Assembly (NCBI RefSeq): GCF_045807065.1
Contig: NZ_JBJMIE010000042.1
Location: 2,724 to 66,723, forward strand
Length of the DNA: 64,000 bases
Reading direction: 5' to 3'
Origin: Actinophytocola sp.
GTDB taxonomy: Bacteria > Actinomycetota > Actinomycetes > Mycobacteriales > Pseudonocardiaceae
Below the pieces are notes generated by a model. That model saw only the letters and a program-made list of their open reading frames with translations. It did no database searches and was not told the DNA's origin. The translations under genes were made by a program, and so were the position numbers. Shown in pieces: positions 38,557 to 57,180 of this stretch (its first letter is position 1; each line of letters opens with the position of its first letter).

Positions 38557-38657
38557 CGCACCCGCCTCCGCTACCGACGATCATCGGGCTCAAAGCAACC
38601 AAGGTTACAGTGCAGACGGTGGTGTCCTGGTGTGCTGCGCGGAGGGTGGTGGTCGTG

Positions 38658-38900: not shown

Positions 38901-39344
38901 CCACAGGATGAAAAAGCTTCAGTAACCGCTCACGCCTGGTGCGTGCCTTCTATGCGACAACGTAATTTTAAAGCTCCGTGCCAGCGGACATCGGCTGGGA
39001 TACACCACTGGCACGGAGCCTCCTCCCCCCTGCGCCACCACTTTCGCCGATCGATGTTGACCGATAGTTGCGTGCGTGTTGAATCACGCATAACCAGCGA
39101 AGTAAGGCCTGGTGGGTTCCGCACGTGGTGGTACCGCTGCACCGTGCGAGTGAAGGACCTCGGGCCCCGGCACGGTCTTCTCCAGCGGACGCGACGGTCG
39201 AGATCGCGACAAGGCCATGCGAATCGGGGCTTTCACGCTCAACTTGCGTGGTATGGCCGGTGTCATGGCCCATTTCCACGACAGTTCATGGACAGGCGCC
39301 CACGTCAGCACCGTCGTCCGGGGAAGCGGTGCTTGAATGTCGAT

Positions 39345-40961
39345 ATGCATCGTCGGCCGTCTGACCGGGGCAAGTCGGTGTTGGTCGAGGCGCGAGGGGT
39401 TGCCGTTGCTAGCGCGGTCAGCCGGCTGACGGGGTACGTTCGGACGGCGAGTCTCGGAGCCGCGCTCGGCGGTAGCCTGGTGGCGGATATCTATGCCAAC
39501 GCCGTTCTGGTGCCCGCTGTCGTCGAGTCAGTGATATTGGGTGCCGCGTTCAGTGGATTTCTGGTACGGCTCCTGACTGGCGCCGTGCTCGAGTCCGGCG
39601 AGGATGAAGTCTTGTTCGTTCAGCGTCTCGTCACGCTGACGTTCGTGTGCCTGGGCATTCTCGCGACAGCAATGTGGCTGTCGGTGGATCTTCTCGCTAA
39701 CCTGTTCGCGGACGTCCAGGCGCGGGCATTGCTGACCCAGTTCCTGTACCTGGTCATTCCCACCTTCATCTTCTCCGGTATGTACCTCGTGTACTCGGCC
39801 GTGCTAAACGTTCATCGGAGGTTCCGTCCCGCGGCGTGGGCCCCCGTCGGTGCCAACATGCTCGTTTCCGCCATTGCCTGGTACGTCGCCGGCTCGCTGC
39901 GCGACGGTCAGGACTCGCCGGCGACGTTCCCGCGGTGGATCGCCATCCTCATCGCTGGTGCCACCCTGATGGCATCGATATTCCAGGTCGTCGTGCTGAT
40001 TCCATTCCTGCGGTCGGTCAGAGTCACTTTTCGAGCGCGATTTGACTTCTCCCTGTTGCCGCTGCGGAGCGTGGCCCGCAACTTTCTCTGGGGCCTGGTC
40101 GCCGCGGGCTCAGGTCAGGCGAGTATCGTCGTCATCGCCATCCTCGCTAACCGCGCATCCGTCCAGGGTTATGCCGGTCTCTTCATCTTCAACAACGTTT
40201 ACCTGTTGATGGCCGCGGCGCACGGCGTGATCACCTTGTCGATCAACACGGTGGTGTTGCCGCGGATGAGCGAGGCGGCGCACGGCCTCGACCGTGGTGA
40301 CGTGGCGGCACAGGCCGACTTCGCCTGTGTCTACTGCGTCCTGTTGCTGGTCCCGGTATCCGTCGTGTTCCTCGTGCTGAGCGGCGACATCGGCCGGTTG
40401 CTGTTCCAGTGGGGGCGGTTCAGCCCGGCCGATCTGGCGGGCATGGCGCCAGTCATCGCCGTAGCGGCCGTCGCGTTGGTTCCGTTCTCGCTCAGTCAGA
40501 TTGTTCTCATGGCATTCTGGGCATTCGAGGATCTGCGCACAGTGGCACTGCTGGGTTTTCCGACCTATCTTCTCCGGATCGTGCTCAGTATCGCGGCCTT
40601 CGTCGTCCTTCACCCGAGGTACGCCACGGCGGGGACGATGGGAGCGTTGGCGATATCCTTCCTGCTCGAGATCGCGATCGCGCGCCACCTACTCCGGCGA
40701 CGGAAAATAGTGATCTGGGCACACGGCGCCACGCGGACGATGTCGCGTGCCCTGCTGGCCGGGCTGGCGGCAAGTGTGTTCACCGCGGTGTTCACGCATT
40801 ATATGCTGGCTGCGGCACCGACGGCGAAGGTCGCCGAAATGCTCTATTTCGGGGCCGGCTGCTGTTGTGCGGTGGTGTCGTACGTGGTTTTCTGCTGGCT
40901 GTTCCAGGTTTCCGAGATGCGCAGATTGGTCACGGTCGTCACCGGCTGGCTTCGATCGTAG
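39345..40961 (+). CDS. murJ: MurJ/MviN-like lipid-linked substrate flippase (short, extra copy)
   Basis: SAVSRLTGYVR, ADIYANAVLVP, VLNVHRRFRPAAWAPV, VVLPRMSEAA, LLFQWGRFS, ALVPFSLSQ; many TM helices. Start at ATG 39345 is inferred. Confidence 0.8.
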   Translation: MHRRPSDRGKSVLVEARGVAVASAVSRLTGYVRTASLGAALGGSLVADIYANAVLVPAVVESVILGAAFSGFLVRLLTGAVLESGEDEVLFVQRLVTLTFVCLGILATAMWLSVDLLANLFADVQARALLTQFLYLVIPTFIFSGMYLVYSAVLNVHRRFRPAAWAPVGANMLVSAIAWYVAGSLRDGQDSPATFPRWIAILIAGATLMASIFQVVVLIPFLRSVRVTFRARFDFSLLPLRSVARNFLWGLVAAGSGQASIVVIAILANRASVQGYAGLFIFNNVYLLMAAAHGVITLSINTVVLPRMSEAAHGLDRGDVAAQADFACVYCVLLLVPVSVVFLVLSGDIGRLLFQWGRFSPADLAGMAPVIAVAAVALVPFSLSQIVLMAFWAFEDLRTVALLGFPTYLLRIVLSIAAFVVLHPRYATAGTMGALAISFLLEIAIARHLLRRRKIVIWAHGATRTMSRALLAGLAASVFTAVFTHYMLAAAPTAKVAEMLYFGAGCCCAVVSYVVFCWLFQVSEMRRLVTVVTGWLRS

Positions 40962-40965
40962 GGAT

Positions 40966-41877
40966 TCATTTCGCTGGTGGGGCCTCGGGAAACCCCGGTG
41001 GGAGTGGCAGGGAGTGGTCGAGCTCCGGCTCGCGTGTGTCGACCCAGACCGGCAGGTGGCCGGGTAGACAGGAGGAGAAGTCCGGGAACACCATGACCAT
41101 GTTGATCACGGCGTTGCTCAGGAACCACTGGGCGCGCCCGGGGATCTGCATGTCGCACGCGTGGCCGGGATCTGTGTCGGGCACCGGCAGCATCGGGGGC
41201 GTGAACGGCGTGGCCGACGAGACCGGCGGTCCGATCCGATACAGCAAACGGTCACGCCACGGAACCGAACCCGTGTTGTACAGCCGCACGGGAAGCAGGA
41301 ACAGCTCGCCTCGTGTCATCTCCGCGGCGAGCACGGAGTGGACGCGGTCGACGGCTACGCCGTCATCCGGGCTCGCCTGCCATTGTCCGGCGGTGGCCGC
41401 GCCGCGTTCGAAGCGTTTGCGTGCCTCGTGGAGAATACGCACGCGGTCGACGCCATGACGTGCGAGAATTCCGCGGTACTGGCCCATGTTCGCCGGATTG
41501 GTCGCGCGTGCGACCAAGGTGAGCGGGTATCGCCACCACCGATTGTCGCTGAGCTGGTCCGCCGCACGGGTCCACCGTTCGAGCCGCTGGCGGGGAGTGG
41601 GTACGGGCACTGGCTCGATGGGGAGTCCGGCCATCCGAAGTCCGGCCACGTCGCCTGCCGCACGGCCACTGGCGATCATTGCCGCCGCGATGTCATCCCA
41701 CAGGGCGTCGGGCAGTTCCGAGTCGCCGGACTCGACGTCGCGAAGACGGTGCCGGCTCAGCCGGCCTGCCGCAAGGCCGTTGGCGGCAAGGAGCTCTGTG
41801 AACGCCCGCAACGACATGTCACCGCGTAGCCGCCGCAACGTGTGGCGTCGCTGGTCAGATGAGTACTCATCCGGCAT
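40966..41877 (-). CDS. XRE-like HTH plus NBR1/Ig-like (FW) domain protein
   Basis: LRRLRGDMSLRAF...LSRHRLRDVESG at the N-terminus; C-terminal RLYNTGSVPWRDR...VPDTDPG. Confidence 0.65.
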   Translation of the reverse strand: MPDEYSSDQRRHTLRRLRGDMSLRAFTELLAANGLAAGRLSRHRLRDVESGDSELPDALWDDIAAAMIASGRAAGDVAGLRMAGLPIEPVPVPTPRQRLERWTRAADQLSDNRWWRYPLTLVARATNPANMGQYRGILARHGVDRVRILHEARKRFERGAATAGQWQASPDDGVAVDRVHSVLAAEMTRGELFLLPVRLYNTGSVPWRDRLLYRIGPPVSSATPFTPPMLPVPDTDPGHACDMQIPGRAQWFLSNAVINMVMVFPDFSSCLPGHLPVWVDTREPELDHSLPLPPGFPEAPPAK

Positions 41878-42892
41878 GATCAACCCATTCCGGCAGCGGA
41901 TCGATCAGATCGGCAGGTGCCACGACCACGGTGACGAACAGCCCGAGCAGTGTGGTCGGAAAGCAGTAGGTGCCATCCGGCCACCCTTGCTTCAGACAGG
42001 CCCGGTAGGTGCCAGGGGTTTTCGGTACCCGCATCGGACATTGGATCCGCACGGACGAGCCGGGGTCGACGTCGGGGATGACGATGAACGCGGGCGTCCG
42101 CACTCCGCCCAAGTAACTGCCGACCCGGTACACCACCCGGTGGCGCCAGGGCACCGAGCCGGTGTTGTGCAGTACCCAGCTGGCGACCAGTTGGCTGTCG
42201 GGAGCGACAAGTAGCCCTTCCGGGGTTTCGTCCTCGGCGCTCGACTCGTCCGCCGCCGACGGCCACCACGGCGCGTTGGGGCTTGAACGTACGTCACGCA
42301 ACCCGACGACAGCCTCGGCCTGAGCCGCCAGCACGGCGGACACGCGACCGTCGGTATCGGGGAAGTGTTCGGTGAAGAAGTCGAGTTCTCGACCCGGTGG
42401 CACGTGCGCGGGCAGGTCGCGCAGCCGCCGGGGGACATCCCGGAGCTGGTCGGCCAACAGGGCGTTGCTCCAGGCGTACATGTCCACCAGGTAGCCATCC
42501 GCGCCGAACGCGAGATCGTAGGCGCGAACCAGCCATCCCGGCACCCGGCTGGTGTAGAGCCGGGTCCTGTCGCCGACCTTTGTGAGGTTGATCCACGCGG
42601 GCAGCCGGTAAAGATCTAGCCGTGAATGATGGCCCTTCTCCAAAGCCTGCAGGAAGGCCTCGTCAACCAGATGTGGGTGCGCACGTACGTGCGTTCCTGC
42701 GTCGGCCCAGGTAGCGCCCGGATACAGGGATGTGATCGCCGGGTTCAGCATCGCCACCGCACTCGACAGGCTGTCGCCGGTGGCCACCCGAAGCTGCCGC
42801 ATCGCGGCTGTCAGTTCACGCGCGGCCAGGATGTGCACCGGGGCCGGCGGGCGGGGCCGGCCGCGCAGGACGTGCCGGGGCACTGTGATCAC
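41867..42892 (-). CDS. HTH-like plus NBR1/Ig-like (FW) domain protein
   Basis: GAGGAG RBS and GTG start; AMRQLRVATG...VRAYDLAFGADG; C-terminal DETPEGLLVAP...SWVLHNTGSVPW...IPDVDPG...PKTPGTYRACLK. Confidence 0.68.
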   Translation of the reverse strand: MITVPRHVLRGRPRPPAPVHILAARELTAAMRQLRVATGDSLSSAVAMLNPAITSLYPGATWADAGTHVRAHPHLVDEAFLQALEKGHHSRLDLYRLPAWINLTKVGDRTRLYTSRVPGWLVRAYDLAFGADGYLVDMYAWSNALLADQLRDVPRRLRDLPAHVPPGRELDFFTEHFPDTDGRVSAVLAAQAEAVVGLRDVRSSPNAPWWPSAADESSAEDETPEGLLVAPDSQLVASWVLHNTGSVPWRHRVVYRVGSYLGGVRTPAFIVIPDVDPGSSVRIQCPMRVPKTPGTYRACLKQGWPDGTYCFPTTLLGLFVTVVVAPADLIDPLPEWVDHAG

Positions 42893-43482
42893 AAACTCCT
42901 CGGTGCCGCTGTGGTCAGGCTGGTGCGCGTTTTTCGTTGTATCGCACTATTGCCGCATGAACAACATTCCTCAGCAAAATTCGCGACGACCGGAGAGTGC
43001 CGAATATCTCGCCCTCGACGTGCCGGTGAGCGGAGGATGGATGAACCGGCCCTGGAAGCACCCGAGAGGCCCGCCGACCGAACAAATTCACACGACAACG
43101 TGCCGGTACGGCAACCTGCTTTGTTGACCACGACGCAAAGCAGTAAGAAAAGCCTCGGCTATTTCGCATTCGAGCGGCATCCCATCTCGCCACAATCCAG
43201 GTGGAAACTGCCACAAATCACGTGGCCGGATCCTCCTGTGCCCGAAAACGCATAGTGAAAGGATCGCAGAAATGTTCAAAATCTTTGTTGGTGGGGCACT
43301 CGTTCTCATCTTCGCGGTCGCAGGTTCAGCGCTCAGGTCGGTCACCGCCGAACATTCTCGAAGCTCGGTCGAAGTCTTCGTGGCCGGCGACATCCCCTGT
43401 TGCCGGATGATGCCGTAGGTCGATCGGCCGGGGATCGGCGCCGTCGGTCCCCGGCCACACCCAGCGGACTGCCCGTCGTCTG

Positions 43483-46326
43483 TCATGGCTGTGGCGGCTT
43501 CTTGGGTCCGGGTAGTCGCGCATACTCGTCGAATGCGTCTGCCCTGACCTGGGTACCGTGCAGGTCCTGGCTGAGCCGCACGGCTTGCTCCGCGTAGTAG
43601 CGCGCCCGGTCCGGTTCACCGTGTAGCCGGTGAGCTCTGGCGAGCGTGGTGAGTGCCCATATCTCCCCGTAGCGATATGTGTGTCTACGGGCGAGGTCGA
43701 GCCCGCGGGTCATGATCGTGATCGCCTGCTCGTAGTTCCCTCGGTCGACATGAATCTTCGCCAGTATCTCGTGTGCGTCGCACTGCCGATAGTGATCGCC
43801 GGTTTTATTATACCAGGACAGCCCTTTCTCGACCATGGTGATGGCCTCGCCGGAATTGCCGAGTTGGTGGTTCGCCTTGCCGAGGTTGACCAGCGCGAAA
43901 GCCTGGCCGAGGGGCACGCCGATGTCCCGGGCGAGGTCCAGTTGTTGTTGAAGGTAGGCGATGGCCTGCTCCGGTTGCCGCTGGGCGAGATGGGTGTGGC
44001 CGAGGTTGCCCAGCGCACGCTGCTCACCGAACCGGTCGCGGATCTCCTGGCAGATGGCCAGTTCCTCGAGAAGGTGGGCACGTGCCTGGTCGAGCTGACC
44101 GATCTGGCTCAGATGCATGGCCAGGTTGCCGTGTGCGTGCGCCAGCGCGACAGAGTGCCCGAGGCGCTCGGCTGCTGCGACGACGCTGTCGAGGAAGCTG
44201 ATCGTGTCGGGTAGGTCGCTCACGCCGGAGTGGAGAAAGCGGTACCAGTGCAGAGCCAGGGCGAGCCCGACGCCGAGGCGGACCTCCTCGGCGGGACCCT
44301 GCCAAGCTTGTAGGACTACCGCGACCATGTTGTGGTGTTGTTCGTCGAGCCACTGCAGCGCTTCGTCGTGGTTGGCCAACGGTTTGGGCGGCGCGGTAAC
44401 CTCGGGTGCGGGGTGGTGCGCTCGATGTGGGTAGACCAGCGCATTGGCTCGACAGGTCGTGGCGATGTAGTAGCTCAGCACGCGAATTATCAGCATGTGT
44501 CGTTCCGCCGGCGCGAGGGTTCTGGTGCCGAGTTCGTGCGCGAAGAGCCTGGTGAGGTCGTGCATGTGCAACCGCCCGGGCTTGGGTTCCTCCATCAGGT
44601 GCGCGTCGAGCAGGCGCTCGGTGATCAGGTCAGCCTCGGCGGGCGTCGTGTCGAGCACTGCGGCGGCGAGGTCCGAGTCGGTGTCGGTGCTGGGTAGCAG
44701 TCCGAAGAGGCAGAGTGCTCGGGCTGCCTTCCGGTCGATGTGGTTGGCACTGTCGTGAAGGGCGGTGTGGCTGACAGCGAGGCTGCTGCGCAAGGCGATG
44801 TCGTCGGCGGCGAGCTCGGTGAGCCGGTGCCGCTCGTTGGCCAGCCGGTCGACCATGTCGTGCACGCGCCAGCTCGGTCGGGCGTTGAGCCGGGCAGCGG
44901 CTACGTGCAGCCCCAACGGCAGATGGTCGCACAGCTCCGCCAGCCGGTAGGTCGCTTCGAACTCCACCGGTCTAATGTCCGGAAGCAGGCTCGCGAGCAT
45001 CATACGGGCCTCGTCGGGAGTGAGCGGACCGAGGACCAGGTGAGTCGCGCCTTCGAGTGCCGCCAAACGGCTTCGGCTGGTGATCAGCACAGCGGTGTCC
45101 GGACCGCCGGGCAGCAGCGGTCGTACCTGACCGGTGCTGGCGGCGTTGTCCAGCATGATAAGCAGCCGCCGCCCGGCCACCACGGTACGCAGCCGTGCGG
45201 CCGCTTCTTCTACGCCAGACGGTATCTCCGTGTTGGCGACGCCCAGCGTCCGCAGCAGGTGGTGCACGGCCTCCACCGCGGACAGCGGCCGCATGCCCGG
45301 TGTCGCGCCACGCAGGTTGACGTGCAGCTGCCCATCCGGGAAACGTGGCATCACCAGATGTGCCGCACGCACGGCGAGCGCCGACTTACCCACTCCTGGC
45401 GCGCCGTGGATGACCACGACCGGTCCCGCCGCCGACGTGGGTTCCGTGGTGAGGAGGCCGGTGAGGGTGGCCACTTCCTGGTCCCGGCCGACAAACGTGT
45501 TCAGGTCACGCGGAAGTTGTCGATGTGTCCGAGTTCCGGTGGCGTGCCCTGCCGCGACACCGGTGTCGGGGGCCGGTGTGGAGATGATCAGCGTCGGGTC
45601 GGCGTTGAGAATTCGTTGGTGCAGTTGCTGCAACGGCTGGCCGGGATCGACGCCGAGCTGTTCTGCGAGCCGCAGTCGGATCTGTTGATAACACTCAAGG
45701 GCCTCAGCCTGCCGTCCACAACGGTACAGCACTGTCATGAGTTGGCTGGCGCACCTCTCGTCCAAGGGGTATGCCGATACTTGCGCCAACACCCGGGCGA
45801 GCAACTCCTTGTGGCGGCCAAGCCGCAGCTCGACGTCGGTCCGGTCAAGCTCGGCGGCCAGCCGTTCCTGGTTCAGCGCGAGCCGGGTGGCATTGATCCA
45901 CGGAGTGTCCAGTCCGCCGAAGGCCTCGCCTCGCCACAGGTTCAGTCCCTGCGCGAAGAGCTCGGCGGCGGCGTCATCAGCTCCAACCGAGCGAGCTTGG
46001 GCGAGTAGGCGTCGACTGACGAACAGATCCACCGACTCGGGCGCGGTCGTCACCACATAGCCGGCCAGTCGCCGTTCTATGCCAACATCTTCCGCACCCG
46101 CCAGCACCTGCCGAAGACGTGACACATAGCTGGCAAGAGAACGGTCGGCCCGCGCCGGCAACCGCTCCCCCCACACGCGCTCGGCGAGGACCCCGGTCGG
46201 TACCGCACGGCCAACATCGACCAGCAGAGCCACCAACACGGCCCGCTGACGGGCATGACCAGGGTCAACCTGCCGTCCGTCGACCCACGCCTCGACATCG
46301 CCCAGAACTCTGAATCTCGTCGCCAC
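43483..46326 (-). CDS. AfsR/SARP family regulator (wHTH-BTAD-NB-ARC-TPR)
   Basis: FRVLGDVEAW, QRAVLVALLV, LNLWRGEAF, YPLDER, FVGRDQE, Walker A GAPGVGKS, LIMLDNA, HLPLGL, MHDLTR, TPR tail. GTG 46326 is the likely start. Confidence 0.93.
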   Translation of the reverse strand: MATRFRVLGDVEAWVDGRQVDPGHARQRAVLVALLVDVGRAVPTGVLAERVWGERLPARADRSLASYVSRLRQVLAGAEDVGIERRLAGYVVTTAPESVDLFVSRRLLAQARSVGADDAAAELFAQGLNLWRGEAFGGLDTPWINATRLALNQERLAAELDRTDVELRLGRHKELLARVLAQVSAYPLDERCASQLMTVLYRCGRQAEALECYQQIRLRLAEQLGVDPGQPLQQLHQRILNADPTLIISTPAPDTGVAAGHATGTRTHRQLPRDLNTFVGRDQEVATLTGLLTTEPTSAAGPVVVIHGAPGVGKSALAVRAAHLVMPRFPDGQLHVNLRGATPGMRPLSAVEAVHHLLRTLGVANTEIPSGVEEAAARLRTVVAGRRLLIMLDNAASTGQVRPLLPGGPDTAVLITSRSRLAALEGATHLVLGPLTPDEARMMLASLLPDIRPVEFEATYRLAELCDHLPLGLHVAAARLNARPSWRVHDMVDRLANERHRLTELAADDIALRSSLAVSHTALHDSANHIDRKAARALCLFGLLPSTDTDSDLAAAVLDTTPAEADLITERLLDAHLMEEPKPGRLHMHDLTRLFAHELGTRTLAPAERHMLIIRVLSYYIATTCRANALVYPHRAHHPAPEVTAPPKPLANHDEALQWLDEQHHNMVAVVLQAWQGPAEEVRLGVGLALALHWYRFLHSGVSDLPDTISFLDSVVAAAERLGHSVALAHAHGNLAMHLSQIGQLDQARAHLLEELAICQEIRDRFGEQRALGNLGHTHLAQRQPEQAIAYLQQQLDLARDIGVPLGQAFALVNLGKANHQLGNSGEAITMVEKGLSWYNKTGDHYRQCDAHEILAKIHVDRGNYEQAITIMTRGLDLARRHTYRYGEIWALTTLARAHRLHGEPDRARYYAEQAVRLSQDLHGTQVRADAFDEYARLPGPKKPPQP

Positions 46327-46566
46327 AGCGCGTCCTCTGATAGACAGCACCCGGATAACCACGGGTATCCCAGTCATCAACTGTTCAACAATCTCACAAC
46401 AGTTTGCCGACATCGAGCGGGCAACATGGTGGAGCGCTGGTGCGGCACCGTTCAGCAGCGCGGAACCGGCCCGGTCCGAACCGCTCGGGTAGGTCGACGA
46501 CCGAGGACGAAACGACCATCACCTGGCAGGCATCGAAAGTATGCGGAGACGTACGTGCTGACACTG

Positions 46567-48585
46567 ATGACGGTGTTGCTGGTCGCTGTGGTCGGCATCA
46601 GGCGACGTCGGCGCACAACCGCTGGCAAGCCGCGGTTACGAGCTCGGACTCGATCCGTCATCCTGGTGTCGGCGATTCTCGCGTTCAACATGACACCGGG
46701 CACCTCCGCCGAGGCAAAGAGTCGTCATTCCATTCCAGACATACCGAACCCGTGCACCGATATTCTCGGCAAGATCCCCAGTATGCCCTACCTGCCCGAG
46801 GCGTGCGACAAGGTCTTCGACGCGGTTGACCGAGCCGTGAGGAATGCGTGTACCGACGCGCCGGACATACAGCGACCAGGTGCGGGTCTGGTGGGTGCGG
46901 TCGACCCGTCACGAGGCCACGGGAGTGAGGGCAGCGTGTACCGCGACTACGGCTACGCGGGCATGGTCTGGCAGGTGTACGACGACAACTGCGTTCTCCC
47001 GAAGCCGGTCACCGACCCGATGACGACCATTGACACCTGGACCGGAAACCAGTTGTTCAACCTGGGAAAGTTCGTGGTGGGAGTCACGAACTCACTACAC
47101 TACGCGCTGTACGACGGTCGCATCCTCGAGCGTCTGAACAACAAGGTGAAAGACCTCGCCCAACAGGTGTTCGACAACATCTACCTCAAGCTCGCCGGCT
47201 TGTTCCTGCTGGTTCTCGCCGTACTCATGTTCCGGCATATCTGGCGCGGTGACCTGGCCTCGGTGTCGAAGCGAGCACTTTTCGCGCTCTGCGGGATGTG
47301 GTTCGCGTCGTCGACTGTGGTAATGGTGGGCAACTACGGCCGGATAGACGACACGATCGTCGGAGTCACCACGGGCATCCAGAACGGCTTTGTCGAGCCG
47401 GAGAAGAAGGGTGACGCCAGGGACACACTGCCAACCGAGCTGCACACGAAGGTGGTGTACGACAACTGGTTGCGCGGTGAGTTCGGCAGTCCGGACACCG
47501 AGCAGGCGCGGAAGCTCGGCCGCACACTGCTCGACGCGCAGGCGTGGACCTGGGAACAGGAGGCGCAGAGCACCAACGAGAAATCCAGGAACCAGACAGA
47601 GAACGGGAAGAAGTCGCGGTACAAGCAGTTCGTCTACCAGCTCGGGCCTACCGCCGGGACCTTCACCGGCACGGACGGATCTCGCATGGGTGCCGGGTTC
47701 CTGTCATTCCTGCAAGCGCTCGTCTACTCACTGTTCCAACTGTTCGCCAAGTTCGCCGTGCTGCTGGCCCAACTGCTCCTGCGGATTCTCACACTCACCG
47801 CTCCGATCATCGGCTTGGTCGCCGTGGTCCACCACGAGATCCTTCGACGGGTTGGCAAGGCGGCCGCCGCAGTGGTGCTCAACGTCCTCGTACTCGCGAT
47901 ACTGGCCGGCGTGCACTCCAAGTTCCTGCAACTGATCTTCGGCCCTGGCATGAACCTGTCCCTCACGGTCCAAATGCTACTCGGGGCCATCGTCACACTG
48001 GTGTTCATCCGCGCTGGGCGCCCACTGCAACGCATCTGGCAGATGGTCGACCTCTCCATGGGCGCGGTGGGCATCTCCAACCCGACAGCCGAGCGCACCC
48101 GCCGGACCCGACCCAATCGCCCATCGCACAACTCCGCGTCGGCACAAGGTGGGTTCTGGAGCGGAGTCCGCGAAAGAGCAAACGGCAAGGAGAAAACCAG
48201 GACGGTCACGGCCGGACGGCCGGAGGCACGACCACCCGTCCCCGCTGTCGCCCAACCCCGCCACACGGGTAACAGCCCTGCCGGGGCGACCAGGTCATCG
48301 ACTTCGAACGCGCGGCGGCGTCGAACCGTGATCCTCGAAGGAAACGACAAGGCAGCCAACAGGCGAAATGTCCACGACGATGTCCACGCAACACCAAAGA
48401 GGGCGATGATGACGCCGAACACAGCACCCGCCGGTGATCGTGACTACGGTCGCCCGAAGAACCTTGACTACAAAGGTCCCCGGACACAGCTTGTCTACCG
48501 TCCGTCGACCGGTCGGGTCGAGCCAGCTCCCAGCCAACAGCCACGAAGTACGTTGAGCGACAGCGAAGCGCCACAGACTCGATGA
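46567..48585 (+). CDS. VirB6/TrbL-like membrane protein of the actinomycete conjugation-like gene family
   Basis: YGYAGMVWQVYD, IDTWTGNQLFNLGK, YDNWLRGEFG, DAQAWT, multiple TM helices, basic/Pro-rich disordered tail. Start uncertain. Confidence 0.62.
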   Translation: MTVLLVAVVGIRRRRRTTAGKPRLRARTRSVILVSAILAFNMTPGTSAEAKSRHSIPDIPNPCTDILGKIPSMPYLPEACDKVFDAVDRAVRNACTDAPDIQRPGAGLVGAVDPSRGHGSEGSVYRDYGYAGMVWQVYDDNCVLPKPVTDPMTTIDTWTGNQLFNLGKFVVGVTNSLHYALYDGRILERLNNKVKDLAQQVFDNIYLKLAGLFLLVLAVLMFRHIWRGDLASVSKRALFALCGMWFASSTVVMVGNYGRIDDTIVGVTTGIQNGFVEPEKKGDARDTLPTELHTKVVYDNWLRGEFGSPDTEQARKLGRTLLDAQAWTWEQEAQSTNEKSRNQTENGKKSRYKQFVYQLGPTAGTFTGTDGSRMGAGFLSFLQALVYSLFQLFAKFAVLLAQLLLRILTLTAPIIGLVAVVHHEILRRVGKAAAAVVLNVLVLAILAGVHSKFLQLIFGPGMNLSLTVQMLLGAIVTLVFIRAGRPLQRIWQMVDLSMGAVGISNPTAERTRRTRPNRPSHNSASAQGGFWSGVRERANGKEKTRTVTAGRPEARPPVPAVAQPRHTGNSPAGATRSSTSNARRRRTVILEGNDKAANRRNVHDDVHATPKRAMMTPNTAPAGDRDYGRPKNLDYKGPRTQLVYRPSTGRVEPAPSQQPRSTLSDSEAPQTR

Positions 48586-48594
48586 GGATCACCC

Positions 48595-48897
48595 ATGTAT
48601 ATTCGCGCGAGCGCGGCCGCCGTGTCGATGGCTTTCGAAGTTGCTCAACCGACACCTGACGGGCCACCGACGCTGGGCACAGGCGGTCTGCAAAACTGGA
48701 TTCTCGACAACGTCATTCCGCTGTTTCTTCTGCTGGTAGCGCTGTTAATTCTCTGGCTCGGCGGCGCCAAGGGCGACAACGCGGGAGTCATGCGGCGCCT
48801 CGGTGGTGTGGTTGTCGCCCTGGCCCTCATCGGCCTGGCGCTGAGCGGCGCCGGCGTGAACATCGGCACCTGGCTGACCGATCTGATCGTGCATTAG
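48595..48897 (+). CDS. Small two-TM protein (VirB2/pilin-like of actinomycete conjugation-like clusters)
   Basis: GLQNWILDNVIPLFLLLVALLILWLGGAKGDNAGVMRRLGG; AGGA RBS directly after the previous stop. Confidence 0.65.
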   Translation: MYIRASAAAVSMAFEVAQPTPDGPPTLGTGGLQNWILDNVIPLFLLLVALLILWLGGAKGDNAGVMRRLGGVVVALALIGLALSGAGVNIGTWLTDLIVH

Positions 48898-49547
48898 ACA
48901 CTACTGACACTCTGGCGCTACTCACCGCCGGTACCACTCCACCACGTCTTCGTTCAGCAACACGGAGATGATGACGCCCGCGATCACGATGCCGACGAGG
49001 CCGCCAGGGCGGTCATTGTATCTGACGGCGGTTCGACCTGATCGTCAAAGCGTGTAACTGGCGGACTCGGCTCGACCATGACCTGCCCCGTCTTGGTCGA
49101 CGATTGGCCGGGAACGGTGGTCGTCGGAACAGGGCTTCGGCGGTGATGGCGAGGTCGCGGACGCGACGGCCAGTGGGTGAAAGACGGCTCCAGCCGCCGA
49201 TGACTCATCCACGGCCCCGGTTCGCGAAGTGTGCGTTCGTGCCCCTGGGGCGGCTTGCGCTGCATTCACGTCGAGGTCCGCCTGGCAGCTTTTCCGACCG
49301 ATATGGTCCCGACAGGGCGCTTCGCACGAACTTCGCCGGCGTGGGGTTGATGTCGATGATGCGGCCGCCAAGTGCTTGATCTGGGTGTCGGGATGGGTTG
49401 TTGGCAGGTGTGGCAGTGGCCAGCGGGCAGCCTGCCATGCCCTCGCCTCATGGCGGCTACTCGAACCGCCCGCGCAGGTAAGCGGTGTGTAGCGCCGCGT
49501 CCCTAGCGTTGTCCATCGACTGGTCTGCGTGTGGAGAGGGGAAGCGC

Positions 49548-51109: not shown

Positions 51110-51540
51110 CACCCGCGTCGCCCACGCGCTCGACGCACTGCCCGCCCCCGGCGCGCGGGTTCGCGGCGAGGTCCTCGATGTCGCGGACCCCACGCCGCCG
51201 CCGGCTTCGCCGCGCGGGATCTGCTGCTGCGGGCAGGTCAGGCGATGGTGCCACCCTTCGCGCCGAGGCGCCGCGGGACGAGACCGCCGCGGTGGTGCGC
51301 CGGCTGGCGGCGCTGCTCACCCCGACCTCGCCGCGCTGCGGCGCACCTTCACCGTCCAGACCTTGGACCTGGTCGGCGCGGCACCGGCCCGGGTCTGCTC
51401 GACCTGGCCCGGCGCGAGGCGCCGGACGTCTCGCTGCGGGTGCTGGCCGAGGAGTGGGAGGCGGGCCCCGCACTGCGCGTGTCCGCCGCCTCTGGGGGAG
51501 GGCCGTCCCATGCCGCCCGACGTGAAGTGTCGGCGCCTTG
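51110..51540 (+). pseudogene. Degraded LysR-type regulator fragments
   Basis: Frameshifted pieces: VAHALDAL, DLLLRAGQAMVP, DLAALRRTFTVQ, LARREAPDVSLRVLAE. Confidence 0.55.
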
Positions 51541-52245
51541 TCAGCCCCGGAGGATCGGTGGGTACAGCACGGTCGCCGAACCACGCCGGTAAAGCATTGC
51601 CGGGCGGCCGCCGTTCTTGATGCTCTGCTCGCCCGTGGGGTCGAGGAAGTTCTCGACGCTGGTCACCTTGCGGTGGAAGTTGCGCGGGTCCAACTGCTGC
51701 CCCCACACGATCTCGTAGACGTTCCGCAGCTCGGTGACGGTGAACACCGGTGGGCAGAATGCGGTGGCCAGGTTGGTGTATTCGAGCTTGCTCCGTGCCC
51801 GCTCGACGGCGTCGCCGACGATCTTCTTGTGGTCGAAAGCGAGCGGTCGTCTTGTTCTGAGGATCTTGTCGACGGGTTTCCATTCCGCCGCCTGTGCGTC
51901 ACCGCCTGCCGCCGGTAACGGCAGGTCAGGCACCAGCGCGAGATAGCACACCGTGACGACGCGGCGCCGTGGATCACGGTCAGGAGCGCCGTAGGTGCGC
52001 AGCTGTTCCAGGTGCAGGCGCTCCACCGCCAGCCCGGTCTCCTCTGCGAGCTCCCGCGCCGCCGCGGTGTCGATGTCCTCGTCCTCGGATGCCAGGAAGC
52101 CGCCGGGTAACGCCCACGTCCCGAGGAACGGCTCGATGCCACGACGTACGAGTAATATCTGCAGCTGTCCTGACTGGACGGTGAGTATTGCCAGGTCGAC
52201 TGCGACGGCCACCGTGGGGATCGTCCAGCCGTCTTCGGATGTCAT
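51541..52245 (-). CDS. nrtR: NrtR-family Nudix-related transcriptional regulator
   Basis: VAVDLAIL...WALPGGF...AAARELAEETG...LEQLRTYGAPDRDPR...LAFDH..I, then wHTH FTVTELRNVYE...LDPRNFHRKV...GGRPAMLYR. Confidence 0.9.
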   Translation of the reverse strand: MTSEDGWTIPTVAVAVDLAILTVQSGQLQILLVRRGIEPFLGTWALPGGFLASEDEDIDTAAARELAEETGLAVERLHLEQLRTYGAPDRDPRRRVVTVCYLALVPDLPLPAAGGDAQAAEWKPVDKILRTRRPLAFDHKKIVGDAVERARSKLEYTNLATAFCPPVFTVTELRNVYEIVWGQQLDPRNFHRKVTSVENFLDPTGEQSIKNGGRPAMLYRRGSATVLYPPILRG

Positions 52246-52259
52246 GCGTGCAGTCTAGG

Positions 52260-52314
52260 TTATCGTCAACGTGACGACAAGCAATGATCGACATTACCGT
52301 CATGTTGACGAGAA
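52260..52314. promoter_or_regulatory. Two 21-bp palindromes (TT-N2-CGTCA-N3-TGACG-N2-AA), putative NrtR operators
   Basis: TTATCGTCAACGTGACGACAA at 52260-52280 and TTACCGTCATGTTGACGAGAA at 52294-52314, in the 103-bp divergent intergenic region. Confidence 0.8.
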
Positions 52315-52348
52315 ATAGGGTCGCGGTCTACCGTCGAGACTTCGGTTC

Positions 52349-53254
52349 ATGGGGGACCGTAAAAATCGGAGCGAGCCAATGATCGTGATCCTCACCGCAC
52401 TGCAACGAGAATTCACAGCGGTTCGACGACACCTGACCGACGTGCGAACGCATCGGCACAACGCTGGCACACTGTTCGAAGTCGGGTCGCTCGCGGACCA
52501 CCCGGACCGGCAGGTCGGGCTGGCGGTCATCGGCGAGGGCAACGCGCCGGCGGCGACCATCACCGAGCGGGCGATCAACGAGTTCTGCCCGACTGCCGTG
52601 ATGTTCGTCGGGATCGCCGGAGCGCTGCACGGGTGGCTCCAGCTGGGTGACGTCGTGGTGGCGACGCGGGTTTACGGCTACCACGGCGGAAGCAGCCGAG
52701 ACGACGGGTTCAAGGCTCGGCCACGTGCCTGGGACAGCTCACACGAGCTCGAACAGGTGGCCCGGCATGTCAACCAGGATGATGTCCGGTGGTCGGCGAT
52801 GTCGGGCAAACCGACGGTCTATTTCTGCCCCATCGCCGCCGGCGAGGTACTTTTGGAGTCTTCGGCGTCACCCGTCGCGAAGCAGTTGCACGACCACTAC
52901 AACGACGCGGTGGCCGTCGAGATGGAAAGCGCCGGAGTCGCCCAGGCGAGCCAGCTGAACCTGTCGACGCTCTCCATCACGATCCGCGGCATCAGCGACT
53001 TCGCCAGCAGGACGAAGCGGTTCACCGACCGGCAGGGGATGCCGCAGGTCGCGGCCGACAACGCCGCCGCGTTCGCGGTGGCCGTCATCTCCGGAATCGT
53101 GGACACCGGAGAACGGTCCGACCGGGGTGGGGCGGACGAGAAGCGCTATCGCGTCAAGAACGAGGCCACGGGCAACGCGAACGTCGTCGCGCAGATCGGT
53201 GTGGTGCACGGCAGTGTCCAGTTCGGCTCGGACACGGGCAAGGGCGGATCGTGA
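52349..53254 (+). CDS. PNP_UDP_1 / MTA-SAH nucleosidase-family effector with C-terminal RHIM/BASS-like motif
   Basis: VILTALQREF, FVGIAG, GDVVV, IAAGEVL, AVEMESAGVA, IRGISDFA; tail VKNEATGNANVVAQIGVVHGSVQF. Confidence 0.88.
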   Translation: MGDRKNRSEPMIVILTALQREFTAVRRHLTDVRTHRHNAGTLFEVGSLADHPDRQVGLAVIGEGNAPAATITERAINEFCPTAVMFVGIAGALHGWLQLGDVVVATRVYGYHGGSSRDDGFKARPRAWDSSHELEQVARHVNQDDVRWSAMSGKPTVYFCPIAAGEVLLESSASPVAKQLHDHYNDAVAVEMESAGVAQASQLNLSTLSITIRGISDFASRTKRFTDRQGMPQVAADNAAAFAVAVISGIVDTGERSDRGGADEKRYRVKNEATGNANVVAQIGVVHGSVQFGSDTGKGGS

Positions 53255-55464
53255 TGCCTGACCCCAAGCCGGCCGGCGGTTCACAGGCGACCAACACCGC
53301 GACCGGAAACGCGACGGTTGATGCCCAGATCGGTTACGTTGAAGGTGACGCAGTCTTCCACAAGCACGAAACCATCTACCAAGTCGCCGCCGACGACTCC
53401 CCCGAGAAGAAGTTCCAAGTGGCACGCAACCTCATCGACGGCGGAGTACCGAGGCCGGCGGAGGATCTCATCAGGCAGGCGCTCAACGTGGGGTATGCCT
53501 CCACGGAGGTCGCGTACTACTACGCCATCTCCGTCCTGAGTGAACGTTCGTTGAACCAACTGGGAGCCAACGAGCTGGACAAGCTCGAACACGCCATACG
53601 TGTGGCCGAGCGCGAGCCGCACGATGAATGGTGGGCGGCCATCGTGGTCATCGGCGAGCTGGTGCAGTGCGCAGTCGATCCCGACAGCGCACCCAATCCG
53701 CGACACGCCGCGCTGCGGGTCGTACTCGACGACTTCCGGGCACTCGTTCAGCAACGGCAGGCCGAGATCACGCGGCACCTCGACATGATCTTCAGCGGAG
53801 CGGTGCAGGAGGAGCTCGACCGGCTGAACTCCGCGACCGTCGCCGCGGAACGTGCGAAGGGCAACCGAGCAGACCGCGCGTGGAAGTACTTCCACCCCGA
53901 TCCGACGTCACCGCGACGCGGCACGCCGCCCCCGTTGCGGGACGGAGAGCCACGGTCGTTCGCATGGGCCGTGACAGCGTTCGGCGTCGTCGTGTTCGGC
54001 CTGTTCGCCACACTGGACGTCAGGACCTCTGGAATGTCCTGGCGAAGCCTGTGGCCCCGAATGCTGTTCGTGGTTGGCGCGCTGGTCGTCGTATGGTCCG
54101 GGTCGGAAGCGTTGACCTCCTACATCCGCAGGCGGATGCGGGAAGCCGAGCACGGCAGGAACCCGGCGGAGTTCGACGAGCACGAGGAGCTCGGCATAGC
54201 GCTCAACGCCACGCAGAAGTTCGCGTCCGCGACGTGGAAACGGGTGCGCTACTACTTCGCCGTTCGCGGGCCGATCAGGAACACGGGCGAATGGGCGATG
54301 AAGACGAAGGGTATCCAGGCCGCGCTGCACTGGCGGCTGGTACGGCTGTACAGCGCTGGACGAGTGGAGGTGACCACTCTCAACTGGCTGATCCGGTGGT
54401 ACGCCAAGCAGACCGCCGAGCAGTGGCGAGCCGGGAGCCTGCCCGATTTTCGCCGGACGCTCCGCCCGAGTCCGTCCACGGTCCTGTCGGTGGGAGTTGG
54501 TGCGGTCGTCGCGGCCAGTGGCGCCGTACTGCAGTTCGTGAGCTCCGTTGCGTTGGGCTTTCTGCCCACGCTGCTCTCTGTCCCGCAGGTGCTGACGGCC
54601 TGTGCTGTCGGCGGGGGTGTCATGTACCTGCTGGGCGATCACCGTGCGAGAGCTCGGGAGCAGGAGGTGCTCGACGAGCTCTTCGAAGGTGAGAAGCGCG
54701 AGTTCCACCGGTGGGAGCAGCGCCTGCGGGATCGGCCGACGGACTCCGAGATGGCACACTGGCTGGAGTACGACAAGTCGCACCTGAAGACCCTGGCGAT
54801 GCGCCGCTGCGAGCTGAACAGCCGGGAGATCATCGCTCATGTCGTGCTGACGGCCGGTAAACCACGTGCCATGCGCGCCAGGGTCGTCAACGGTCCACCC
54901 CGTTTCTCCAGATACGTCGTGCTGGTCTTCCTCCTCACCGAGCACGGCGTCCGGGAGGTCGACGTCGACCTGAACTTCCTGACGGGTGCGATCTACGACG
55001 AACGGCGCACGTCGTTCCGATACGACGCGCTCGCGTCCGCTCGGGTGCTCGAGAAGGGCTTCCAGTCGGCCGAAGGCCAGCAGCACGTCGTACTCCTCGG
55101 GCGGGACGTGCACCTGACCGACAAGTCGGCGCTCGTGATCAGCCGGACCTTCGAGCTGGCCCTGGTCAATGACCAGACGATCGAAGTCGTCGTGGACAAC
55201 TACGAAGGGCTGATCGACGACAGCACCGCCGAGGACAAGTCCGCTCTGGACACAATGGCGCTCGATTCGTCCGGTGTCGCGATCGCGCTGCACATTCTCG
55301 AAGCGGTCGCCGCTGAGGGCCGGGAGTGGATCACACGGGAGCAGGACCGCCGGACCCGGCGGTGGCGCGAGTGGGAACGTGGTCGGCGTCGCATTGTCGC
55401 GCTCATCGGCAGACCGTGGCCGCTGACCCTCGCGTCGGGGAGAGGCCCGGCAGAGGCGTCCTAG
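53254..55464 (+). CDS. Membrane protein with N-terminal RHIM/BASS-like motif, helical region, about four TM helices and a soluble C-terminal domain
   Basis: ATG overlaps the upstream TGA. N-terminal ATNTATGNATVDAQIGYVEGDAVF; TPR-like KFQVARNLIDGG...YYYAISVL; hydrophobic segments; no P-loop seen. Confidence 0.78.
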   Translation: MPDPKPAGGSQATNTATGNATVDAQIGYVEGDAVFHKHETIYQVAADDSPEKKFQVARNLIDGGVPRPAEDLIRQALNVGYASTEVAYYYAISVLSERSLNQLGANELDKLEHAIRVAEREPHDEWWAAIVVIGELVQCAVDPDSAPNPRHAALRVVLDDFRALVQQRQAEITRHLDMIFSGAVQEELDRLNSATVAAERAKGNRADRAWKYFHPDPTSPRRGTPPPLRDGEPRSFAWAVTAFGVVVFGLFATLDVRTSGMSWRSLWPRMLFVVGALVVVWSGSEALTSYIRRRMREAEHGRNPAEFDEHEELGIALNATQKFASATWKRVRYYFAVRGPIRNTGEWAMKTKGIQAALHWRLVRLYSAGRVEVTTLNWLIRWYAKQTAEQWRAGSLPDFRRTLRPSPSTVLSVGVGAVVAASGAVLQFVSSVALGFLPTLLSVPQVLTACAVGGGVMYLLGDHRARAREQEVLDELFEGEKREFHRWEQRLRDRPTDSEMAHWLEYDKSHLKTLAMRRCELNSREIIAHVVLTAGKPRAMRARVVNGPPRFSRYVVLVFLLTEHGVREVDVDLNFLTGAIYDERRTSFRYDALASARVLEKGFQSAEGQQHVVLLGRDVHLTDKSALVISRTFELALVNDQTIEVVVDNYEGLIDDSTAEDKSALDTMALDSSGVAIALHILEAVAAEGREWITREQDRRTRRWREWERGRRRIVALIGRPWPLTLASGRGPAEAS

Positions 55465-55616
55465 GTCGACGAGGTGGCAGCCTGCGAGGCCGAGCGAACG
55501 TGCTGCCCCGGCCCTTCCGGTGACCAGCGATGGCCGACCGCGGTCGAACACGCGCCGCGGGCGCTCCAGCTCAGAAATGCGATCGCGCTCGCGATCCACG
55601 ATGAAGGGATAGTTCC

Positions 55617-55952
55617 GTGATTGAGCCGGTTCTCATGTCGATCGCCGCCGCACTCGCCGGGAAGTCCGTGACATCGCTCTACGAGTTGGTGAAGCGCAGG
55701 TTCACCGGTCGCGGGGAGGCCGCGGCGGCGCTCGAGAAGGCGTCGGACGCGGCTCCCGGCTCGCCCGAGGTGGCGGCCTTGGCCGCACACCTCGCTGCCG
55801 CGGAAGTGGAGAACCCGGCCTTTGGCCTCGAGATGCGACACATCTGGCGGCAGGCAACCGCCGACCGCCGCGGTGTGGTCAACGTGATCACGGGAAACGT
55901 GTCCGGCAAGGTAGTTCAGGCGGGGGACATCGAGGGCGGGATCAGGTTCTAG
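55617..55952 (+). CDS. Small Bell/HeLo-like helical protein with C-terminal RHIM/BASS-like motif
   Basis: Hydrophobic N-terminal helix MIEPVLMSIAAALAGKSVTSLYELVKRRF, helical bundle, tail VVNVITGNVSGKVVQAGDIEGGIRF*; GAAGGG RBS before GTG. Confidence 0.78.
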   Translation: MIEPVLMSIAAALAGKSVTSLYELVKRRFTGRGEAAAALEKASDAAPGSPEVAALAAHLAAAEVENPAFGLEMRHIWRQATADRRGVVNVITGNVSGKVVQAGDIEGGIRF

Positions 55953-56159
55953 TCGTCCCGGCAGCTCCAGCCGCGCCCGCTCGAAGGGGCTTCGCCGAAC
56001 GCGTCGCACCACCGCGTGGCGTGAGCGTCCACATCGGACTACCCCTGCCGTGCTGCGGCAGTCCGAGCCGGCCGAACTGGTCGTAGCAATGCGCCGGTGT
56101 CGGTGAGCACGCCGATCCGGTCACCCTCGAGCTGGAACTTCACGACGCTGACGTCCTGG

Positions 56160-56543
56160 CGCATGGCGGCGGGCTCTACGCCTACATCCAGCCCGATGGC
56201 AGCTGGATGATCAACAACACCGGGTTCCTCGTCGGCGCGGGCGGTGTCGTCGCGATCGACTCGTGCTTGACGGAACGGCGGACCCGCGCCTTCCTCGACA
56301 GGGTCCGGACCGTCAGCGGTGGTTCCGTCCACACGCTGCTCAACACCCACAGCCATCCCGACCACACCGCCGGGAACGGCTGGTTCCCCGGTGCCACGAT
56401 CATCGCCCCAGGAACGCACCCGCGCCGACCTGCTCGCGGCGAGAGGCGCACCGCCACTGCGCGACATCTTCGAACCGATCGACGAGGGCGAACTGCCACC
56501 CGCCCCACCGTTCCTGACCTACACCGACGGCGTCACGCTGTAA
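56160..56543 (+). pseudogene. Truncated, frameshifted MBL-fold metallo-hydrolase (cyclase-like)
   Basis: YAYIQPDGSWMINNTGF...LLNTHSHPDHTAGN (HxHxDH), frameshift near 56408, stop after GVTL. Confidence 0.78.
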
Positions 56544-56760
56544 CATCACCACCGACCGAAACGCGAGCGTCTTTCGGATCAGTCCGCTGCCTCCGTACAG
56601 CGCGCACCTCGGGATTCTCGCGGTCCGGCCGCTGGTGTGCCGGCAGCCGCCGTTCGAGCGTCCCGCACGGCGGCCGCCGAGATCCATGTGGCAGGCCGGA
56701 GCGGGTCGCTCGCGCACGTGACACCTGTCCGGCACGGCTTGGGATCAGTGGTGTCAATCA

Positions 56761-56932
56761 ACCTGGATGACGTCGAACAACGGCTCGCCGCGTTCGAGCA
56801 ACGCTACGACGCGACCGCGAAACCGTTCCAGTGGAAGTTCACCCGCACCGAACTCCACGACCTACTCGACCGGATCAACCAGCACGAACAACAACACGAC
56901 ACCACCGACCTTCCAACCGCCGCGAGATCAAC
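56761..56932 (+). mobile_element. IS630-family transposase C-terminal remnant
   Basis: VEQRLAAFEQRYDATAKPFQWKFTRTELHDLLDRI resembles the IS630 C-terminal PF.W motif. Confidence 0.65.
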
Positions 56933-56957
56933 CCCCGAAGAACTTCCAATTCGACCA

Positions 56958-57180
56958 CTAAGCCAACCTGATTTTTGGCCTTCGCGCGGGTGATCCGTTG
57001 TCCCATGGTGGTCTCGGCCACCGCAGGTAGGCGCGGGCGATCTCAGACACGGTCAGATCGCCGACCATGCGCAGCGTCAGTGCCACGCGGGTCTCCAGCG
57101 CGGGGTGGCAGCAGGTGAAGATCAGCCGGAGGCGGTCGTCGTCGATGGCGTCGAGGGGTTCGGGCAGCTGGCCGAACAGG
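56958..57180 (-). pseudogene. Internal fragment of an ECF sigma factor (ECF42/DUF6596-type)
   Basis: IDDDRLRLIFTCCHPAL...VALTLR...EIARAYL / EATMGQRITRAKAKI, with a frameshift. Confidence 0.75.

Follow-up and report, generated by a model that had tools for sequence, protein, structure and literature searches.

Can a bacterial cell-death or defence module be held under a repressor that senses a nucleotide? For most such modules, production is assumed to be constitutive and triggering post-translational, and to our knowledge few have a defined small-molecule-responsive repressor. The question is raised by a stretch of 64,000 nucleotides from Actinophytocola sp. (contig NZ_JBJMIE010000042.1, positions 2,724 to 66,723; hereafter the window), in which two palindromes, O1 and O2, separate nrtR2, a gene for a regulator of the NrtR family, from a divergent operon that encodes a nucleosidase, a membrane protein and a small protein. 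Judging from the sequences, the palindromes are very probably operators of the adjacent NrtR paralog, and the control exerted by this paralog very probably extends beyond its own gene to the nucleosidase operon. We think it likely that NrtR2 is a dedicated local repressor that gates its own gene through O1 and the operon through O2 and is released by a nucleotide. A nucleotide signal of the ADP-ribose type would then act on a putative module for cell death or defence, and not on the synthesis of nicotinamide adenine dinucleotide (NAD). The features at the centre of the argument are the following.

51541..52245, minus strand: nrtR2, encoding a 234-aa NrtR-family regulator (assigned by Pfam, NCBIfam and alignment to proteins of solved structure)
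52260..52280: O1, which covers the -35 element and spacer of the predicted nrtR2 promoter (kept in loci L018-L021)
52294..52314: O2, whose right half contains the predicted -35 element of the nucleosidase operon (kept in loci L018-L021)
52379..53254, plus strand: PNP_UDP_1 nucleosidase, 291 aa (Pfam, 6.6e-28)

Two rare palindromes between nrtR2 and the nucleosidase operon

Both sites are imperfect 21-bp palindromes with a 3-nt centre. The arms of O1 (TTATCGTCAACGTGACGACAA, 52260-52280), TTATCGTCA and TGACGACAA, are complementary at 8/9 positions, and those of O2 (TTACCGTCATGTTGACGAGAA, 52294-52314), TTACCGTCA and TGACGAGAA, at 7/9. The two sites are 76% identical (16/21) and start 34 bp apart. 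An earlier note on this DNA had reported twin 21-bp palindromes at this spacing, and we located both where it had placed them; its statement that they fill the intergenic region went too far, since they span 55 bp of the 133 bp (52246-52378). Pfam recovered the flanking genes that it had named: the minus strand encodes NUDIX and NrtR_WHD domains, and the plus strand a PNP_UDP_1 domain. O1 and O2 both carry G6T7 and A15C16, which form a GT-N7-AC core. Most NrtR motifs have 21-bp palindromic symmetry and this conserved core (Rodionov et al. 2008, PMC2330246). The reading of the palindromes as NrtR-type operators is thus upheld by their length, their core and their conservation in relatives.

The sites are also rare. 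Pattern TTAYCGTCANNNTGACGRTAA, allowing up to three mismatches, matches twice in the window, at O1 and O2, against 0.02 matches expected from shuffled sequences. When the search was extended to the whole genome (a draft of 10.4 Mb with 70.6% guanine and cytosine, GC), O1 and O2 were the sole matches with at most one mismatch. They also account for two of the three perfect matches of the genome to the generic pattern TTNNNGTCNNNNNGACNNNAA.

Three other candidates were discarded. For the strict pattern, the next match in the genome (third-best, at C547:8570, with 3 mismatches) was dismissed as chance: parB and ddl are convergent there, and the match stands between their 3' ends. The third generic match (C19:21217) lacks the CGTCA half-site and has no strong open reading frame (ORF) close by. 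An RNA element in the intergenic region was rejected for want of an Rfam match.

NrtR2 and its housekeeping paralog

NrtR2 consists of an N-terminal Nudix domain with an intact REUxEE box (NUDIX, PF00293, 8e-21) and a C-terminal NrtR winged helix (NrtR_WHD, PF21906, 1e-15), with DPRNFHRK as recognition helix. It matches the NCBIfam NtrR model at 3.6e-45, under the equivalog cut-off of the model, and aligns over its full length with BtAraR (5BS6) and SoNrtR (3GZ5), with E about 1e-33.

The genome encodes exactly two NrtR_WHD proteins. The second, NrtR1 (241 aa, degenerate Nudix box; contig C402:13300-15140, locus L002), is divergent from nadA-nadB-nadC. The intergenic region carries GTTTTCG-N9-CGAAAAC, a mycobacterial-type NrtR site (GTTTTCGATCCTAAGGCGAAAAC) that fits, with one mismatch, the sequence GTTTTCGA-N7-TCGAAAAC experimentally bound by the NrtR of M. 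smegmatis (PMC6800001). With 42% identity to each other, the two paralogs have different recognition helices and Nudix boxes. Since NrtR1 stands beside nadABC with its own operator, the housekeeping NAD regulon appears to be separate from NrtR2. Indeed, we found no regulon of NAD biosynthesis or salvage genes for NrtR2: all close matches of the genome lie beside the nucleosidase operon. Such a regulon is typical of the NrtR family but does not define it, as AraR and draG regulons exist (PMC4666351, PMC2330246).

The site travels with the three genes

A scan of named genome records returned at least 264 relatives of the membrane protein, of which we analysed the best 80 loci. They belong to at least six families, all of actinomycetes (Pseudonocardiaceae, Micromonosporaceae, Streptosporangiaceae, Thermomonosporaceae and Nocardiopsaceae, as well as Rhodococcus rhodnii). 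In 73/80 loci, each of the three genes, for NrtR, nucleosidase and membrane protein, has a relative. The palindrome occurs in nearly all of these three-gene loci, over predicted core promoter elements. In the nine loci that could be examined in full, the membrane-protein gene adjoins homologues of the nucleosidase and of NrtR2 (a stand-alone Nudix protein in L022), while four of the 80 loci lack the nucleosidase and also lack NrtR. The membrane protein is encoded in 12/61 related genomes and in 9/24 within the genus Actinophytocola. A plasmid collection gave one partial match only, which suggests that the system is mainly chromosomal.

The sites are concentrated at these loci. Perfect generic sites number 69 across the 767 kb of loci, compared with 3 in the 10.4-Mb genome, and only three 9-of-10 matches in the loci fall outside regulatory positions. 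The stricter pattern is found in 8/61 related genomes, in 6 of them at the three-gene locus; a reversed control pattern matched 1 genome of the 61. Site and regulator also vary together: the DPRNF-H-RK helix pairs with xCGTCA half-sites in 43/52 cases and the DPRNF-Y-RK helix with xTGTCA in 108/112. The operator consensus is TTnyCGTCA-N3-TGACGrnAA in the clade of Actinophytocola sp. and TTyyTGTCA-N3-TGACArrAA in the sister clade.

The arrangement of the genes varies between loci, and where nrtR lies apart the site keeps to the nucleosidase promoter. The four closest divergent loci (L018-L021) keep both sites, and the 11-15 bp between them cannot be aligned. Most loci are instead co-directional, translationally coupled operons in the order nrtR, nucleosidase and membrane protein, and carry only one site (TTyyTGTCA-N3-TGACArrAA), located immediately before nrtR. 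Some loci separate the regulator from its presumed target. For example, L038 has twin sites before the nucleosidase gene and another site in front of nrtR, which is distant there, L053 has a site before the nucleosidase gene and nrtR downstream of the operon, L045 has one site before each gene, and L093 has a site at the nucleosidase promoter and no nrtR in the locus. In two Lentzea loci (L040 and L046), the operon lies downstream of nrtR and begins with a stand-alone Nudix gene, followed by the nucleosidase and membrane-protein genes, and the site stands before this Nudix gene. Stand-alone Nudix proteins of about 165 aa, without a helix-turn-helix domain, are encoded directly upstream of the nucleosidase at L040:2277-2780, L046:2477-2965 and L022:7073-7582. 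In Actinophytocola oryzae (L022/L078), where a Nudix-only gene takes the place of nrtR, we found no site.

Predicted promoter layout

The predicted promoter elements around the two sites are the following.

52252..52257, minus strand: predicted -10 element of nrtR2 (TAGACT), with the ATG 6 nt further on
52275-52280, minus strand: predicted -35 element of nrtR2 (TTGTCG), within O1
52305..52334, plus strand: predicted promoter of the nucleosidase operon (-35 TTGACG at 52305-52310, 18-nt spacer, -10 TACCGT at 52329-52334)

On the minus strand, O1 is followed by CC, TAGACT, GCACGC and ATG. This is the layout of the co-directional loci, where the site is followed by 1-4 nt, TAnnnT, 6-8 nt and a start codon in 56/56 loci with a site. 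As the site lies directly 5' of TAnnnT and the start codon, the operator would sit in the spacer of a leaderless-mRNA promoter, and the nrtR2 mRNA is probably leaderless. On the other side, the right half of O2 supplies TTGACG in five divergent loci, and TACCGT (TATTCT in one) follows 17-18 nt later. The hexamers predicted as -35 and -10 elements are conserved, with the sites overlapping them.

Alternatively, the palindromes might autoregulate nrtR2 only, bind an unrelated factor or act as a DNA or RNA hairpin, their link to the operon being incidental. O1 alone shows an autoregulatory layout, O1 and O2 can pair with each other (17-nt arms, 88% complementary) and the RNA fold has a z of -2.7. 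However, the co-directional loci have a single site, which makes an inter-site hairpin impossible there, and neither site would be transcribed from the predicted starts (about 52341 on the plus strand and 52245 on the minus strand). Genomes without the three genes are essentially free of the motif, which also co-varies with the NrtR2 helix. Finally, sites stand at the nucleosidase promoter when nrtR is elsewhere, which disfavours an action of the palindromes on nrtR alone, one of the outcomes that the earlier note had named as fatal to its proposal. We consider an incidental link very improbable.

The regulation that we propose instead assigns one NrtR2 dimer to each 21-mer. At O1, the dimer would cover the -35 element and spacer of the leaderless nrtR2 promoter, resulting in autorepression. 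At O2, it would cover the -35 element (TTGACG) and hold off the operon of nucleosidase, membrane protein and small protein. A nucleotide ligand in the Nudix domain would then release NrtR2 and induce both transcription units; alternatively, loss of NAD+ as a co-repressor would have the same direction of effect. We infer binding, repression and promoter assignments from sequence patterns and their conservation.

The nucleosidase operon

Two further genes complete the operon.

53254..55464, plus strand: membrane protein, 736 aa, four hydrophobic segments, its start overlapping the nucleosidase stop (ATGA)
55617..55952, plus strand: small protein, 111 aa, with a hydrophobic N-terminal helix and a C-terminal motif

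The nucleosidase gene has a ribosome-binding site (GGAG) at 52368-52371. Its start is most likely the ATG at 52379 and not that at 52349, because two relatives lack the upstream ATG. The protein matches the PADLOC models 'Effector PN-superfamily' (6e-21) and PDC-M60C (1.7e-14), and resembles methylthioadenosine/S-adenosylhomocysteine (MTA/SAH) nucleosidases only distantly (E about 1e-10). Its C-terminus carries a RHIM/BASS3-like motif (NEATGNANVVAQIG, 53159-53200), copies of which are found at the N-terminus of the membrane protein (53293-53334) and at the C-terminus of the small protein. The three versions (NEATGNANVVAQIG, NTATGNATVDAQIG and ITGNVSGKVVQAG) share the form N-x-[AT]-x-G-N-...-Q-[IA]-G and resemble the G-phi-Q-phi-G core of RHIM/BASS3 amyloid-signalling motifs.

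The nucleosidase and membrane-protein genes are translationally coupled, their 4-bp overlap is kept in all related loci, and the N-terminal motif of the membrane protein is kept in 51 homologues. In these homologues, two other blocks are near-invariant, a C-terminal LE[AG][VI]AAEG and a central RxxR[AV]W[KA]YF. The membrane protein combines a helical, TPR-like domain with a pair of hydrophobic hairpins and a beta-rich domain. It matched no Pfam, NCBIfam or PADLOC family, and has no Walker A motif (P-loop). An AlphaFold2 (AF2) model (mean predicted local distance difference test score, pLDDT, of 80.7) shows the TPR-like domain, long helical hairpins and the beta-rich domain. Residues 1-38 are disordered in the model, which is compatible with an amyloid motif but uninformative. 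A Foldseek search of the model against the PDB gave no match at E <= 0.001 and only weak TPR-like matches, limited to the N-terminal helical part. The small protein, which matched no family and no PADLOC model, is encoded by an optional third gene found in the two closest relatives only.

One may ask if the operon is metabolic, with real operators. It would then serve the catabolism of ADP-ribose or adenine nucleotides: ADP-ribose would be sensed by NrtR2, a Nudix step would yield adenosine monophosphate (AMP) and ribose-5-phosphate, the PNP enzyme would act like an AMP nucleosidase, and induction would amount to detoxification or salvage. NrtR regulons are classically metabolic (PMC2330246), stand-alone Nudix hydrolase genes lie inside the operon in L040, L046 and L022, and the Nudix box of NrtR2 is intact in most of its clade. 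The resemblance of the nucleosidase to MTA/SAH nucleosidases points the same way, as does the absence of NrtR from the four membrane-protein loci without nucleosidase, which ties the regulator to the enzyme. Yet this leaves the motif and the membrane partner unexplained. The sharing of a RHIM/BASS3-like motif by three proteins of the operon is an arrangement known solely from amyloid-signalling pairs with cell-death or defence roles. The nucleosidase also matches a PADLOC effector model, and the genes are patchy in the genus (9/24 genomes) and lie in a lower-GC stretch, neither of which suits a core pathway. A metabolic operon thus seems improbable to us.

The neighbourhood looks like acquired DNA. 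The operon stretch has a GC content of 0.64-0.67, compared with 0.706 for the genome. Positions 38500-49500 and 51500-57000 of the window range from 0.61 to 0.67. Near the operon, 46255-48585 encodes a 'mobilome membrane protein' of the CD3337/EF1877 family, which is of conjugation type, and 43483-46413 a 976-aa BTAD/NB-ARC/TPR regulator. Downstream of the operon, a 187-aa ORF (56207-56770) matches just the first ~80 positions of a metallo-beta-lactamase fold profile and is possibly a truncated gene.

Variants of the locus

Some relatives combine the same parts differently. At two loci of the genus Actinophytocola (L108:1155-3850 and L109:1182-3870), an NrtR2-like gene is divergent from a gene for a fusion of about 620 aa, with two sites (e.g. 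TTTGCGTCAACATGACATGAA). The fusion joins a PNP nucleosidase at the N-terminus to a Q/G-rich motif, a transmembrane segment and a C-terminal repeat region. It represents a second architecture of predicted NrtR-controlled nucleosidase, and one genome holds both kinds. At L110:2850-3030, twin sites accompany an NrtR2-like gene without a nucleosidase in the vicinity, and only a 16-codon hydrophobic ORF (MEVNAIVGLLLILLVL) is divergent from it. Three Amycolatopsis loci (L032:2125-2193, L033:2093-2161 and L034:1984-2052) carry two additional NrtR-type sites, spaced 48 bp apart, which lie past the 3' end of nrtR, between this gene and the end of a convergent ion-channel-like ORF, with no obvious downstream gene. 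The partner of the membrane protein can also differ. In Actinomadura chibensis (L086:2865-3992), the gene before that of the membrane-protein homologue encodes a BTAD/SARP-like protein of 376 aa that ends in the shared motif (NNTATGNARVGNQGIANG), and the locus has neither nucleosidase nor NrtR. This swap suggests that the partner of the membrane protein is exchangeable and that NrtR goes with the nucleosidase. In Goodfellowiella (L039:1218-6019), one nucleosidase gene is followed by two tandem paralogs of the membrane-protein gene.

The ligand and what it might signal

The ligand of NrtR2 is most likely ADP-ribose or a close adenine-dinucleotide derivative, to judge from the residues of its Nudix domain. 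The ADP-ribose contacts of SoNrtR are listed in PMC4666351. The equivalents of Arg41 and Arg98 are kept in NrtR2 (R35 and the first Arg after DRDP, respectively), and the arabinose-binding BtAraR is without the Arg98 equivalent. Among 75 members of the NrtR2 clade, an N-terminal Trp is conserved in 68. The REUxEE box is intact in 71/75 members; it is degenerate in SoNrtR, MsNrtR and NrtR1.

Several observations weigh against the explanation as a whole or against some of its parts. Asn43 of SoNrtR is replaced by Ile in NrtR2, and Lys76 by the canonical Nudix Glu; hence, the pocket differs from that of the only solved ADP-ribose complex. The effectors of the NrtR family vary, including ADP-ribose, NAD+ (NdnR) and L-arabinose (AraR) (PMC4666351). 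The intact REUxEE box implies that NrtR2 may hydrolyse its own ligand, in which case induction would be transient. As for the sites, their spacing ranges from 32 to 36 bp among close relatives and thus keeps no fixed helical phase, for which reason a cooperative tetramer with fixed phasing was rejected. The co-variation of H/Y in the helix with C/T in the half-site speaks for binding, but it follows two clades, and common descent may account for part of it. A scan for E. coli-type promoters and terminators between 52150 and 52450 found nothing, so that the promoters were assigned from conserved actinomycete-style TAnnnT and TTGACG elements. Finally, the operon gives no full match to one described PADLOC system, as the nucleosidase alone matches domain-level effector models. 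This last point bears on the term 'conflict operon' used in the earlier note: control by NrtR is very probable, given the conserved sites, and a conflict role is plausible in view of the effector match, the motif and the patchy distribution, while the operon does not correspond in full to any described system.

The partial conservation of the pocket also accords with a different role of the ligand. With the operators real, the Nudix domain might sense a nucleotide produced by the system itself, or NAD+ as a co-repressor, instead of ADP-ribose from other NADases. NrtR2 would then provide feedback, either amplification or shut-off, rather than the sensing of upstream danger. Effectors differ across the family, and NdnR of C. 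glutamicum responds to NAD+ (PMC4666351). Moreover, NrtR follows the nucleosidase and not the membrane protein, and it accompanies the different nucleosidase fusion of L108 and L109, as if ligand and enzyme chemistry were linked. Nevertheless, the kept equivalents of Arg41 and Arg98 and the N-terminal Trp fit an ADP-ribose-like ligand equally well. We regard feedback as unlikely.

In its most far-reaching form, our proposal makes the ligand an alarm. ADP-ribose freed through NAD+ cleavage by TIR/SIR2-type defences of the cell itself, toxins or phage enzymes, or a fall in NAD+, would lift the repression by NrtR2 of an amyloid-triggered nucleosidase suicide module. The identity of the ligand and a conflict or cell-death role under such an NAD+/ADP-ribose alarm are read from sequence, and we put this version forward tentatively, as a plausible possibility that we nevertheless doubt. 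If true, NAD+-depleting immunity would license a second-line effector, and a metabolite-sensing repressor widespread in actinomycetes would join two layers of immunity. In any case, the locus offers a recognisable regulator, a defined operator and a promoter layout conserved across dozens of genera, which makes its inducer and function testable with standard tools.

Comparison with known systems

The locus has the hallmarks of the NrtR family (PMC2330246; SoNrtR, 3GZ5/3GZ6/3GZ8; MsNrtR, PMC6800001): a Nudix domain joined to a winged helix, a 21-bp palindrome with a GT-N7-AC core, predicted autoregulation, one or two sites per promoter and an operator in a divergent intergenic region over predicted promoter elements. 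It departs from classic NrtR systems in its predicted target, which is a PNP nucleosidase with a membrane partner and not a gene of NAD synthesis or salvage; nadABC has the separate NrtR1 and an operator of another type. NrtR2 also has an intact Nudix catalytic box, which SoNrtR and MsNrtR lack. NrtR paralogs have been recruited as local regulators of other gene sets before, as in arabinose utilisation (BtAraR, PMC4666351) and in the Streptomyces nrtR1-draG regulon (PMC2330246). The predicted control of the nucleosidase operon would thus extend the family to a third kind of non-NAD target.

A precedent in gene order is the 'Actinobacteria-2b' group nrtR2<#>nrtX-nrtY, a divergent two-gene operon also listed in Proteus and Hahella, with the products of nrtX and nrtY unstated (PMC2330246). 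The occurrence of nrtX-nrtY in Proteus and Hahella argues against identity with the present operon, since actinomycetes account for every one of the 80 best relatives of the membrane protein. By SEED role names, nrtX and nrtY would encode a Band-7 protein and a PpnK-like protein rather than a nucleosidase and the present membrane protein. In the searchable literature, we found no description of a pairing of NrtR with a nucleosidase.

The idea of a conflict system gated by ADP-ribose, which the earlier note had put forward, already exists in print as a prediction about a different system: Iyer, Burroughs, Anantharaman and Aravind (2022) predicted that one-component Nudix-HTH or WYL factors gate ADP-ribosylglycohydrolase (ARG) conflict systems via ADP-ribose (PMC9503650). 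Both proposals have an NrtR-like repressor couple an ADP-ribose signal to the expression of a conflict system. Their systems centre on ARG domains and phosphatases, and their article does not mention a PNPase, whereas the present locus has a PNP nucleosidase with an amyloid-type adaptor motif.

In this respect, the operon resembles the amyloid-signalling pairs of bacteria (bioRxiv 10.1101/2020.01.06.895854; Bab/Agp, bioRxiv 10.1101/2024.11.07.622273), neither of the two studies mentioning a Nudix or NrtR regulator. In both cases, a short Q/G/N-rich motif is shared by the effector, where it is C-terminal, and the product of the neighbouring gene, where it is N-terminal, and the BASS/Bell-NLR and Bab/Agp pairs share with our locus the 4-bp ORF overlap and actinomycete hosts. 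PNP domains are known effectors in the fungal counterparts of these pairs, and one pair was shown to be an abortive-infection system (same references). The difference lies in the receptor, here a membrane protein that lacks any NB-ARC, NACHT or TGP module and gave no fold match in the PDB at the threshold stated above. The locus is therefore an entry point to a receptor of unknown fold that takes the place of the NLR in a cluster of the amyloid-signalling type.

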